A stretch of 64,000 nt of DNA from contig JBFFUI010000005.1 in NCBI GenBank assembly GCA_041571435.1, forward strand, positions 26,214 to 90,213. Direction: 5' to 3'. Each line of letters starts with the position of its first letter. Within the stretch, counting starts at the first letter, position 1. The translations under genes and the position numbers were made by a program. Positions 7,256 to 10,693 of this stretch are shown here, one piece after another. Under the pieces are notes generated by a model. The model was not told the origin of the DNA and searched no databases. It worked only from the letters and a program-made list of their open reading frames with translations. Origin of the DNA: Sulfurimonadaceae bacterium (GTDB lineage: Bacteria > Campylobacterota > Campylobacteria > Campylobacterales > Sulfurimonadaceae).

Positions 7256-7924
7256 TCAATGACATTCGATGAGGTAGCCGATTTTGGAGGATGAGATGAT
7301 ATTCAACTCAGGTAGCTTTTTTCGAATCCGATAGATGAGTTGGCGGAGTGATTCGTCATTGCATACATCGTCTTCCCAGATATGCCGTTTGATTTCATCG
7401 CTGTGCACGACATTGTTACCGTGTTTAAAGAGCAGGGAGACAAGTTTCAACTCGTTTTTACCCAATTTGACAAGGTTGTCGTTGTGTTTGATCGTATTGT
7501 GCTCCGGATTGAAGGTATAGCAGCCTGATCGGTAACTCTCTTTTTCCGTTGGCAACGCACTCCTGATAGATTGCGATGCGAGCAGAATCGCCGCTTCAAT
7601 GTCGGGTTCACTGACGGGTTTGATAAGGTAGCCGAGCGGAGAGACATCCATAGCATCTTGTATGGTCGTGCTGTTTTGATAGGAGGTGATAAAGATCGAG
7701 CGGATGTTGTGATCGCGATAGATTTCCTGAGCACATTGGATCCCATCGAGTCTGCCGTTGATCTCGATATCCATAAGAACAAGGTCTACAGATGTTTTAT
7801 CCAACAGGTCAAAGAGGGGTTGGGCACTGTCAAAGCTGCTAAGAACAGTGTGCCCCAGGTCTTCGAGGGTTTCTGTTAAAAAAAGTGCCGTCAGCGCGTC
7901 ATCTTCTACGATCGCAATATCCAT
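7256..7924 (-). CDS. Two-component response regulator (receiver plus OmpR-type winged helix)
   Basis: IVEDD, LVLMDI and YLIKP receiver motifs; C-terminal SLRQLIYRIRKKL...IGY wHTH. Confidence 0.92.
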   Translation of the reverse strand: MDIAIVEDDALTALFLTETLEDLGHTVLSSFDSAQPLFDLLDKTSVDLVLMDIEINGRLDGIQCAQEIYRDHNIRSIFITSYQNSTTIQDAMDVSPLGYLIKPVSEPDIEAAILLASQSIRSALPTEKESYRSGCYTFNPEHNTIKHNDNLVKLGKNELKLVSLLFKHGNNVVHSDEIKRHIWEDDVCNDESLRQLIYRIRKKLPELNIISSSKIGYLIECH

Positions 7925-8020
7925 CTGAACCTTTACCCTGTGAAATTGCTACTATTATATGGATTCGAGTTAAAAAAAACGCCGCCACAGCATGAAAGAG
8001 ATCGCATTTTGGCCGAAAAT

Positions 8021-8052
8021 GTAACTTTTTTCTCACTTTTTTGATTTACACT
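8021..8052 (+). promoter_or_regulatory. Putative promoter: TAACTTT/TCACTTT repeat (11-bp period) plus -10 TACACT
   Basis: Repeats start at 8022 and 8033; TACACT at 8047-8052; same geometry as the receptor promoter. Confidence 0.4.
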
Positions 8053-8062
8053 TGCATCCAAC

Positions 8063-8189
8063 AGCACCTCTGAAAGCCCTATGTTGTCTACGCCACTGAA
8101 TGAAAGCGTAAGAGTGTATCAACGCAATATGCCTAATCATGTTGCGTTGACATATAAACGAAACATAGCATAGGGTGTTCAGAGGTGCT
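8063..8189 (+). ncRNA. Candidate structured leader RNA (three-way junction), family unknown
   Basis: Closing stem 8063-8087/8165-8189 (24 of 25 positions paired, including 3 G-U); hairpins 8089-8110 and 8119-8150 (13 bp); directly upstream of the RBS. Confidence 0.6.
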
Positions 8190-8208
8190 AAAAAATCAAG
8201 GAGTAAAG

Positions 8209-10053
8209 ATGAAAGAAAATTCAACGGAGGAGATCAAGCAGATGGCCCAGGAAAAAGCTCAACAGGCTAAAACAGCAGCAAAAGAGAAGCTCGATCAGGT
8301 CAAGAACATGTCGGCAGATGAAGCGAAAGAGTTGGCAAAAGAGAAGGCTGAACAGGCGAAGAAGCTGGCTGCCGAAAAGCTTGAACAGATGAAAAAGATG
8401 TCGGCTGACGATGCCAAGAAGATGGCGGAAGAGAAGATGGCAAACTTGAAGAAAATGCCGATGATCAACAAGATCAGCTACGGTGCTGCAACCGCAGCCA
8501 TCGTCTTGGGAATGGTCTTTATGTTCTCAGGCGAGTCATCGTCAAGTATCTCTTCTGATGGCAAATGGGAGCTTTTTACCTATAACGGGGAGTGTGAAGA
8601 GGGTGATCTGGTCGAAAAGAAAGATCAGCGAACAAGAGAACTACAATGTAAGATCGGTGAACGCGAATACACTGTCTTGGACCAGGGATTGTATGCCGAC
8701 GGGAAAGTATCATACGAAAAAGCTTATGACCTTGCCTATAACAACGAGAGAGAGTCTGCCGAAACAAGATATGCATTCCAAACAAGCTACAACGCCAAGG
8801 GCGAGATCAAAGGCAAGACGACGTATGTCAACAAGTTCAATAACTCCGATGACTTACAGTCGATGACAACGGAAAATTATATAAAATATGACAACGGCAA
8901 GATGAAATACAAAACGACGTATGCGGTCAAGCAGAATGACGACGGACGCTGGGTCTCTTTAATGGAAAAAGACTATAGAGGCTTTACCAATGGCAAGTCA
9001 AAAAAAGAAGTGTCGTATGAGATCAAAAAAAATAAAGATGGAACGTGGGCTTCGTTGGAAAAAAGCAAGGTTAAGTTCAATGATGCTGGTCAAAAAACCG
9101 ATGAAGAGACCTATGCCATGCAGCAGAATAAGGAAGGCAAGTGGTACGCGGCACCTGTCAAGATTTACGCTGATTCTTACTCCGGGATTAATACAGACCT
9201 TGTGCTGAAAGAGAATAGCAACGGTCGTATTGATTCTTATACAGTGGCTAAAAAATCTGTTGACTGGAACGAAACTAAACCACATCGCGTCATGGCGACC
9301 TATGAAGTGGTCCAGGATGCTAACGGCCAGTGGAAATCGCTTCTTAAAAGTGAGAAATCAAGCACAGGCGGCTCTTTTTACCATACTGAAAACGTGATCA
9401 AAAAAGACAGCAAATCGGGTAATTACAGCGCTTTGGCAACATTGAAGGGGTACTACAACAGGGCTGATGGTAAAAACATATTGAGCAGAAACACCAGCTA
9501 TAAAGTTGTTGAAAACGATTCAGGCAGATGGGTTTCATTACCGATAAAAGAGGAGAAATACAACAGAAAAGGTGTATTACAGGAAGAAACGACATACGTG
9601 GTCTTAAAAAATGCGGCGGGCGATCACGATAAGTATAAAGTATCTTCCAAATACTACAGTAAAGACAGCAAACTGTCATATTCTGCAACCTATGAAACCA
9701 AACAAAACGATGATGGCAAGTGGGTTTCAGTTATGCTCAAAGAGGAAAAATATAGCAAAGGCGCATTACATAAAGAAACGACATATGTGGTTAAAAAGAG
9801 TGCCAGCGGTGATCACAAAAGTTTCAAAGTATCTTCTAAAGAGTATCGTCAGAATACCCTGCAGCATACTGAAACTTATGAAATCAAACAAAACGATAGT
9901 GGTACATGGAGCAGTTTGCTAGTCGATTATAAGTCTTACGAATACGACAGAAAACAACAACGTTATACCAATATGCTAAAAAGACAAGACAAATACGAGC
10001 TTTTCAAAGACGATAGAGGCTGGTGGCGAAACAAACGCATCAAAAAGAGCTAA
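8209..10053 (+). CDS. Membrane-anchored protein: K/E/A-rich helical repeats, one TM helix, large beta-hairpin repeat domain
   Basis: RBS AAGGAG before ATG 8209; 30-aa repeats; TM ISYGAATAAIVLGMVFMF; about 12 TYxVxxNxxGxW repeats. Confidence 0.85.
   Translation: MKENSTEEIKQMAQEKAQQAKTAAKEKLDQVKNMSADEAKELAKEKAEQAKKLAAEKLEQMKKMSADDAKKMAEEKMANLKKMPMINKISYGAATAAIVLGMVFMFSGESSSSISSDGKWELFTYNGECEEGDLVEKKDQRTRELQCKIGEREYTVLDQGLYADGKVSYEKAYDLAYNNERESAETRYAFQTSYNAKGEIKGKTTYVNKFNNSDDLQSMTTENYIKYDNGKMKYKTTYAVKQNDDGRWVSLMEKDYRGFTNGKSKKEVSYEIKKNKDGTWASLEKSKVKFNDAGQKTDEETYAMQQNKEGKWYAAPVKIYADSYSGINTDLVLKENSNGRIDSYTVAKKSVDWNETKPHRVMATYEVVQDANGQWKSLLKSEKSSTGGSFYHTENVIKKDSKSGNYSALATLKGYYNRADGKNILSRNTSYKVVENDSGRWVSLPIKEEKYNRKGVLQEETTYVVLKNAAGDHDKYKVSSKYYSKDSKLSYSATYETKQNDDGKWVSVMLKEEKYSKGALHKETTYVVKKSASGDHKSFKVSSKEYRQNTLQHTETYEIKQNDSGTWSSLLVDYKSYEYDRKQQRYTNMLKRQDKYELFKDDRGWWRNKRIKKS
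9547..9930 (+). repeat. Intragenic tandem duplication, about 192-nt (64-aa) period
   Basis: AAAGAGGAGAAATAC...GATCAC...AAAGTATCTTCCAAA at 9547 recurs as AAAGAGGAAAAATAT...GATCAC...AAAGTATCTTCTAAA at 9739. Confidence 0.75.
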
Positions 10054-10099: not shown

Positions 10100-10693
10100 A
10101 TGAAAGAAAATCAAAAAGAAGAGGTCACTGAAAAGGCCCAGGAAAAGACGGCGGCAAAAGAGAAGCTTGAAGAGCTCAAGAACATGTCGGCGGACGAAGC
10201 GAAGTCACTGGCAAAAGAGAAAGCAGAAGAGGCGAAGAAGCTGGCTGCTGAAAAGGTTGACCAGATGAGAAACATGTCGGCTGAAGATGCCAAGAAGTTG
10301 GCGCAAGAGAAGGTGGAACACTACAAAGCGATGCCGATGATCAACAAGGTCAGCTACGCTGCCGCGGCAGTGATCCTGTTGATCTTGCTAATGTCGATCT
10401 TTGGCAAACCTTCTTCACCTGAAGGTCGTGCACAGACGATATGTGAAGCACTTACCGACGGTGACTTTGAAGAAGCGGTTGAATATGTACAGGAAAAGTA
10501 TCAGAGAGAAGCACTTGGATTGCTGATGGCATATTCCGGAAGTGAAAAGAATCTGGAAAAAATGTCCGACTATGACTGTAGCATCGAAAAAACAAAACCT
10601 AAAGGCGATAGCAAGATAACAGTCTACTTTGAGAATGCACCATCGATAAAAATGAAACTGGACGAGGATGGTGAGTGGTACTGGCGAATGTAG
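10100..10693 (+). CDS. Membrane-anchored protein with the same N-terminal module as the upstream gene and a small DUF4878/NTF2-like C-terminal domain
   Basis: KNMSADEAKSLAKEKAEEAKKLAAEK...MPMINKVSY nearly identical to the upstream gene; SSPEGRAQTICEALTDGDFEEAVEY...KLDEDGEWY resembles DUF4878. Confidence 0.8.
   Translation: MKENQKEEVTEKAQEKTAAKEKLEELKNMSADEAKSLAKEKAEEAKKLAAEKVDQMRNMSAEDAKKLAQEKVEHYKAMPMINKVSYAAAAVILLILLMSIFGKPSSPEGRAQTICEALTDGDFEEAVEYVQEKYQREALGLLMAYSGSEKNLEKMSDYDCSIEKTKPKGDSKITVYFENAPSIKMKLDEDGEWYWRM

Follow-up and report, generated by a model that had tools for sequence, protein, structure and literature searches.

A strongly folded 127-nt leader element in a Sulfurimonadaceae bacterium is probably an IS5-type miniature transposable element

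Introduction

[quoted passage not shown] In its account of mtrCDE, PMC10969869 places a Correia element just downstream of the promoter and describes cleavage of such mRNAs by RNase III at the inverted repeats. PMC2649163 likewise reports RNase III cleavage of the Correia inverted-repeat duplex in Neisseria. Passages of PMC10969869 also record promoters and integration host factor (IHF) sites borne by MITEs, as well as MITE-derived small RNAs in Coxiella. Here we describe a 127-nt element at positions 8063-8189 (+ strand) of a 64,000-nt stretch of DNA from a Sulfurimonadaceae bacterium (contig JBFFUI010000005.1, positions 26,214 to 90,213 of the forward strand), which we call the window. The element occupies the leader of a small operon for predicted membrane proteins, and we find that it is probably a MITE whose ends are shared across the genus.

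The likeness to Correia elements lies in the arrangement: a MITE between promoter and gene, inverted repeats that would form a long duplex in RNA, and, as we infer for this locus, transcription together with the gene. The two are unrelated in sequence and in parent transposase. Correia elements are also highly multicopy in their own genome and have promoters and IHF sites among their features, whereas the present element is single copy in its genome and its cleavage is a prediction. A second, looser resemblance is to the type III hammerhead ribozyme, with a three-way junction and with GUC and GAAA near the closing stem; it lacks the CUGANGA core of a hammerhead, its GAAA varies between species, and Rfam gives no match. 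A first-pass annotation, made from the letters of the window, had proposed an undescribed cis-regulatory RNA, an RNase III-processed small RNA or a ribozyme-like relic.

Results

The arms match the ends of a genus-wide MITE family

The element is small (127 bp), intergenic and MITE-like, with two terminal inverted repeats around a 77-nt core. The left repeat (AGCACCTCTGAAAGCCCTA, 8063-8087, + strand) has one mismatch to a 19-mer, GGCACCTCTRAAARCCCTA, and the right repeat (8165-8189, + strand), read as its reverse complement, has two. We counted this 19-mer at two or fewer mismatches in 16 genomes of the genus, using the reversed 19-mer as a control. All 16 genomes were positive and 13 of them held 8-48 matches, against 0 throughout for the reversed control. 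The highest counts were found in G008 (48), G006 (39), G009 (34) and G015 (32), followed by G011 and G005 (29 each), G013 (26), G003 (20), G007 (17), G010 (15), G014 (13), G004 (11) and G012 (8). The remaining genomes were the sister species G002 (3), G001 (2) and the source genome of the window, G000 (2), where the two matches are the two ends of the element itself. A genome from another genus of the same family, G080, gave 19 matches.

The arms of the element agree with the family 19-mer at 17-18 of 19 nt. Agreement extends beyond the 19-mer in the G002 copy, whose left arm matches L098, a 60-bp G008 element, at 22 of 24 positions of its left end. Paired MITE copies measure 55, 60, 106, 162, 170, 181, 264 and 288 bp; those sampled in G015 and in G007, a third species of the genus, are 264 or 288 bp, with one of 55 bp. 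A perfect 4-bp target-site duplication accompanies 6 of 8 paired copies in G080 and 7 of 13 copies in G015 and G007. A covariance model built from the G000 and G002 copies of the element and run over 151 family genomes added a single locus, a G080 element of 181 bp that ends in GGGCACCTCTAAAAACCCTAAG and has 62 blastn matches within that genome. Finally, G015 contains an insertion sequence (IS) of the parental type. It is ~1.25 kb long, has ends GGGCATCTCTAAAAAC and carries a 342-aa open reading frame (ORF) that reaches 275.5 bits against NF033581 (IS5 family transposase, for which the cut-off is 140).

The 19-mer counts, the sampled copies, the L098 match and the G015 insertion sequence together identify the arms as terminal inverted repeats of an IS5-derived MITE family of this genus. 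We put the probability that the element itself is a MITE, short, non-autonomous and derived from an IS5-family insertion sequence, at roughly 0.8. So read, it is a MITE in a 5' untranslated region (5' UTR), a kind of arrangement already known, and not a new class of regulatory RNA. The undescribed, dedicated cis-regulatory RNA of the first-pass annotation gives way here, since the arms are MITE inverted repeats in every genome of the genus and end an IS5-family insertion sequence in one. That annotation had itself named a multi-copy MITE as a contrary outcome, and the ends are multicopy in 13 other genomes of the genus. A limited literature search found no description of this IS5-type MITE family in print.

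No ORF of transposase size overlaps the element (the overlapping ORFs were not scanned for a transposase family). Those that do overlap it are a GTG-started extension of the downstream frame (8185-10053, + strand) and minus-strand ORFs such as one at 8033-8224 (63 aa).

Several smaller observations concern the family as a whole. Its target duplications are 4-bp and AT-rich (G003-G015 and G080; for example L078-L089 and L068-L075). An exact 11-mer, GCACCTCTGAA, occurs at most five times per genome in 401 genomes of the order; this count had seemed to speak against a local MITE family and proved misleading, the family having A at position 10. In G002 a solo 19-mer, GGTACCTCTGAAAGCCCTG (L090, G002:C60:916-934), is of the same G/G subtype as the element and has no second arm to pair with; either a solo end or a chance match may account for it. 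Solo 11-mers, also without a partner arm, occur in G000 at C4:73348 and C12:9160.

The same end motif serves in two phyla

A scan of one genome per species for both 11-nt ends at the right spacing returned nine loci. One is the G002 copy and the others are mostly gammaproteobacterial. The 11-mer is present in 92 copies in G218 and 22 in G219, versus 0-1 for the control. G218, a gammaproteobacterial metagenome-assembled genome (L028-L038, with L043-L045), carries MITEs of several size classes (132-274 bp) with ends GGCACCTCTGAA, and CTAG stands on both flanks in 8 of 11 copies. The same genome has ~1.15-kb elements with a DDE_Tnp_1 transposase, whose ends are one base off the 11-mer and whose flanks are CTAG or CTAA. 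One end motif serves in two phyla.

Across G218, G219, Metapseudomonas and Thalassolituus, the gammaproteobacterial MITEs and IS5-type elements have ends GGCA(C/G/T)CTCTGAA, a CTAG duplication and, as MITEs, lengths of 112-274 bp. What they share with the window element is the 11-12 nt at the very ends. They differ from it in everything inward of the terminal 12 nt, in their CTAG target and in belonging to another phylum. Eight gammaproteobacterial loci, searched against Rfam at gathering thresholds, gave only a tRNA.

The element is a long inverted repeat with a strong fold

The element is first of all a long inverted repeat. Folded with ViennaRNA as + strand RNA, it forms a three-way junction whose outer stem has the left terminal repeat as its 5' strand and the right one as its 3' strand, with 8063-8087 and 8165-8189 paired at 24 of 25 positions. 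The sole mismatch is A.G at 8075/8177, and three pairs are G.U (8076/8176, 8084/8168 and 8086/8166). Within the core, P2 is a 5-bp hairpin, UACGC/GCGUA (8089-8110, + strand). P3 is built on a 13-bp hairpin at 8119-8150, which has one extra U.G pair (8128/8141) and is lengthened by four more pairs to span 8114-8155 (+ strand); it is the same in G000 and G002. The first-pass annotation had described the 24-of-25 pairing, the three G.U pairs and both hairpins, and the fold bears all of them out.

The minimum free energy of the + strand is -61.0 kcal/mol, compared with -27.1 +/- 3.3 for 200 dinucleotide shuffles (z-score -10.2; 0/200 as good). RNA of the minus strand likewise folds strongly (-54.7, z -8.3), and so does the element as single-stranded DNA (z -8.9). 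It had been argued that the G.U pairs point to RNA rather than DNA structure. The pairs are real, but because the minus strand and the single-stranded DNA fold strongly too, the strand argument comes down to those G.U pairs. For scans of other genomes this carries a warning, as an extreme folding z-score of a leader may reflect nothing more than transposon inverted repeats.

In a longer fold of 202 nt (8059-8260), the element keeps the same structure as an autonomous module, and the Shine-Dalgarno sequence downstream is essentially unpaired. No terminator was called on the + strand. When 7500-8700 was searched by cmscan with 4227 Rfam models at E <=10, five matches came back, at 13.7-16.7 bits and all far below gathering; none is a riboswitch or a hammerhead, in keeping with the earlier statement that no known riboswitch is recognizable.

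The promoter block and the proposed fate of the leader

Upstream of the element lies a block that looks like a regulated promoter. Two tandem 11-bp direct repeats, TGTAACTTTTT (8020-8030) and TCTCACTTTTT (8031-8041), form a candidate response-regulator site on the + strand (8020-8041), just 5' of a TAnACT hexamer. This hexamer, TACACT (8047-8052, + strand), is a candidate -10 element; a sigma-70 scan of the sequence did not call it. TACACT ends 11 nt before the element, and the Shine-Dalgarno sequence AAGGAG (8198-8203, + strand) starts 8 nt past it, so that the spacing given in the first-pass annotation holds.

The promoter block (8016-8054) is kept in three species, G000, G002 and G007. The direct-repeat block occurs once in G000; elsewhere it is found twice in G002 (L042, 7880-7859 and 7511-7490, minus strand) and at ~2084-2063 (minus strand) in G007 (L011). 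In place of TACACT, G007 has TACATT and the first G002 copy TAGACT. Regulators of the OmpR/PhoB type bind direct repeats one helical turn apart. A gene for such a response regulator, with receiver and Trans_reg_C domain matches, is transcribed divergently from the element (7256-7924, minus strand), and the promoter block is probably its operator, as predicted from the repeats. Transcription would start at ~8059-8062, a few nucleotides 5' of the outer stem.

Since the upstream promoter is conserved and only 19 nt separate the element from the start codon, transcription probably includes the element, as the 5' part of the mRNA. The inverted repeats would then form a 24-bp duplex within a few nucleotides of the mRNA 5' end. 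Duplexes spanning about two helical turns are substrates of RNase III. Of the enzymes concerned, the genome has RNase III (236.6 bits) and RNase J (618.8 bits), and a search for RNase E/G found none above cut-off. RNase III may cut the duplex and so re-cut the leader; the trimmed message would then start with a monophosphorylated end only a few nucleotides 5' of the ribosome-binding site, and its stability could change. Alternatively, an uncut 5'-terminal stem might keep the 5'-exonuclease RNase J off the message. The most likely consequence, by analogy with the Correia elements of Neisseria, is a co-transcribed 5'-UTR hairpin open to RNase III.

The element is rare and the leader differs between relatives

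The element was found in 2 of 353 family genomes, G000 and G002. Among 40 relatives G002 was the sole carrier, at 95% identity. Metagenome contigs supplied four variants, of G000 type and G002 type, with the element at the same place; one has G8146A, which breaks the P3 pair C8123-G8146, and another has only a loop change, A8099C. A 34-nt match in G231 (E 0.004) was taken as chance.

In G007 the same promoter block and the same first codons enclose an unrelated leader of ~158 nt, which is single copy and has a moderate fold (z -2.5). A 10/11 match between this leader and the right arm was set aside as chance, the local alignment scores of 17 and 19 comparing with a shuffle mean of 17.6 (standard deviation 2.2). 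Because the G007 leader is unrelated, the leader is not a conserved RNA; it is replaced wholesale between close relatives. The wholesale difference suggests that the site has been rearranged more than once. G002 offers a further arrangement, with the promoter block present twice: the first copy leads to a 95-aa ORF through a leader of ~28 nt, and the second to the element and a homologue of the 614-aa protein encoded downstream in the window. The window lacks this 95-aa ORF (L042, G002:C30, 7826-7539, minus strand), which in G002 is inserted between the regulator gene and the promoter that bears the element.

Three leaders follow the same promoter and gene start, one with the MITE, one unrelated of 158 nt and one of 28 nt. 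This natural comparison could gauge the effect of a 5'-UTR MITE on expression in Campylobacterota.

Divergence of the element is at the local neutral level

G000 and G002 differ at 7 of the 127 positions of the element (5.5%). Three changes in G002 are in the outer stem: A8063G (A-U to G.U), U8084C (U.G to C-G) and U8166C (G.U to G-C). C8093G breaks the closing pair of P2, which is no longer predicted in G002. The remaining three fall in loops or junctions. A8161G turns the hammerhead-like GAAA into GGAA, and junction nucleotide 8158 is also changed. None of the 46 pairs shows a compensatory change between G000 and G002. Structural conservation in homologous leaders, which the first-pass annotation had set as a test, is therefore missing on both counts, with 0/46 compensatory pairs and an unrelated leader in G007.

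To read these numbers, the surrounding genes matter. Divergence between G000 and G002 at 4-fold sites is 40.9% in the NUDIX gene, 43.0% in the TonB receptor gene, 42.3% in the 614-aa gene and 23.6% in the kinase gene, against 7.1% (6/85) in the adjacent regulator gene. Over its first 300 coding nt, the 614-aa gene is 91.7% identical. Purifying selection on the leader had been considered from its 94.5% identity compared with 68% for the protein; this was rejected, as the regulator is at 7.1% at 4-fold sites and the whole tract is young. The 5.5% of the element is about the local neutral level and indicates no extra constraint. Regulator, promoter, element and gene start form one young tract, which probably reflects recent recombination between the lineages. 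The low-divergence tract runs from ~7256 to 8500 when compared with G002:C30, and the flanking genes are at 24-43% at 4-fold sites. Such a pattern suggests that the regulator-promoter-leader unit recently recombined or was transferred between the two species. For the element itself, a neutral passenger is consistent with the comparative data.

Points that weigh against a MITE

The element departs from a textbook MITE in a number of ways. It has no target-site duplication; the flanks are CCAA and AAAA, alike at 2 of 4 positions. They read CCAA-C-AGCACC on the left and GGTGCT-A-AAAA on the right, and the outermost G/C pair of the inverted repeat has been lost. The element is single copy in G000 (2.16 Mb, 66 contigs) and in G002, and genome-wide searches of both found no DDE_Tnp_1 transposase. 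Its 77-nt core matches no other family copy, any similarity being no better than shuffles or confined to the terminal 18 nt. Plasmids searched by blastn with the element gave no match, and metagenome contigs searched with the 30-nt inner hairpin gave 0 stretches. No clean empty site was seen: no examined contig skips the element, and G007 has a leader of insert size. At repeat positions 10 and 14 this copy has G where most members of the family have A; variants with either G are known. Finally, four outer-stem transitions all lead to G.U and none to A.C on the + strand (p ~0.06, estimated; about 1 in 16), which mildly favours selection at the RNA level and is too weak to carry weight.

Compared with the common copies in the genus, the element thus stands out in length (127 bp versus 264/288 bp), in its private core, in its single copy and in its lack of a duplication. 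MITE families with common ends and differing cores are frequent. We read the element as an old or rearranged MITE copy. Single copy in a genome does not exclude a MITE, and here the family is visible only when the sister genomes are searched with the ends. Such a search documents a MITE family of IS5 type that is spread throughout a genus of Sulfurimonadaceae, with a clade, that of G000 and G002, nearly without copies.

Alternative readings of the element

A MITE of this kind might have been put to use. By this account the last MITE copy has been domesticated and is now kept by selection as a leader that tunes the membrane-protein operon, the 24-bp duplex setting the fate of the mRNA through cleavage by RNase III or through 5'-end protection from RNase J, in an organism without RNase E. 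The element does keep its place in two species and four metagenome-contig variants, its outer-stem transitions all preserve pairing on the + strand (G.U or G-C), and the stem begins at the predicted 5' end with the ribosome-binding site free. G000 and G002 are moreover otherwise without the family, having 2 and 3 matches versus 8-48 in 13 of the 14 other genomes (G001 has 2). Were domestication true, the G.U-only substitutions on the + strand would be a trace of RNA-level selection. The divergence, however, equals the local neutral level (5.5%, with 7.1% at regulator 4-fold sites), compensatory changes are lacking, G002 no longer has P2, one variant breaks a P3 pair, and the homologous gene in G007 has the same promoter with an unrelated leader. 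We consider domestication possible and on balance doubtful. An effect at the DNA level, in which the element supplies promoter parts or a protein-binding site and the gene is driven partly from inside it, strikes us as improbable. A perfect TTGACA is present in the core at 8147-8152 and is kept in G002, and MITE-borne promoters and IHF sites are on record in the passages of PMC10969869 mentioned above. Yet no acceptable -10 lies at 16-18 bp from it (ATAGGG or TAGGGT), no + strand site was called, and both G007 and the first G002 copy keep the promoter block where the element is missing.

Readings that make the element a functional RNA of its own fare worse. If RNase III released the element as a small RNA of ~127 nt in its own right, that RNA would have a long duplex that can be cut on both strands and a precedent in the MITE-derived small RNAs that PMC10969869 mentions for Coxiella. 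Processing by RNase III, as first proposed, stays plausible since the enzyme is encoded; a discrete small RNA is highly improbable, having neither a promoter or terminator of its own nor a conserved single-stranded seed, and being present in two species only. We find scarcely credible a dedicated, undescribed cis-regulatory RNA that senses a ligand or signal, riboswitch-like and unrelated to transposons. Its attractions are the very stable fold, the 5'-UTR position and the want of a match to a known family. It has to contend with arms that are a genus-wide transposon end, with the absence of the element from the G007 leader and from 351 of 353 family genomes, and with the lack of covariation, junction nucleotides 8158 and 8161 and P2 all being altered in G002. 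With the ribosome-binding site left unsequestered and without a terminator, a ligand-sensing switch is unlikely on mechanistic grounds also. The chance of a type III hammerhead, as relic or variant, is practically nil. The hammerhead core consensus joins stems I and II by CUGANGA and sets GAAA directly against stem III. The topology is indeed three-way, and the letters that had been pointed out are there, GUC (8086-8088) at the end of the left arm and CGAAAC (8159-8164) before the right arm, except that G8086 and U8087 belong to the left arm itself. The junction between the hairpins (8111-8118) reads AGAGUGUA in place of CUGANGA, the GAAA is offset from the stem by one base and is GGAA in G002, and no hammerhead model of Rfam matched even at E <=10. 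The ribozyme relic is accordingly dropped, and an old MITE copy in the 5' UTR remains our preferred reading.

Neighbouring genes

The gene behind the element (8209-10053, + strand, ATG at 8209) is lineage-specific. Its product is a membrane protein of 614 aa with one membrane helix, N-terminal repeats rich in K and E, and a C-terminal part that is also repeat-rich. A second gene follows (10100-10693, + strand), for a 197-aa paralogue of the N-terminal part of the first protein, with 56% identity over residues 1-141. Upstream, a TonB-dependent receptor gene lies on the minus strand together with the response-regulator gene.

Neither the 614-aa protein nor its 197-aa paralogue has a family in Pfam or NCBIfam, and Protein Atlas gave no usable match. 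A locus search of genome contigs found no relatives of the downstream protein, and a metagenome scan with the 27-nt gene start gave 0 stretches. Homologues of the 614-aa protein are present in 4 of 201 family genomes, its own included. Both tandem paralogous membrane proteins carry KEKAEQAK-like repeats in their N-terminal parts, and the C-terminal part of the larger one contains about eight degenerate repeats of a ~45-aa motif, 'TYxxKQNDxGxW'.

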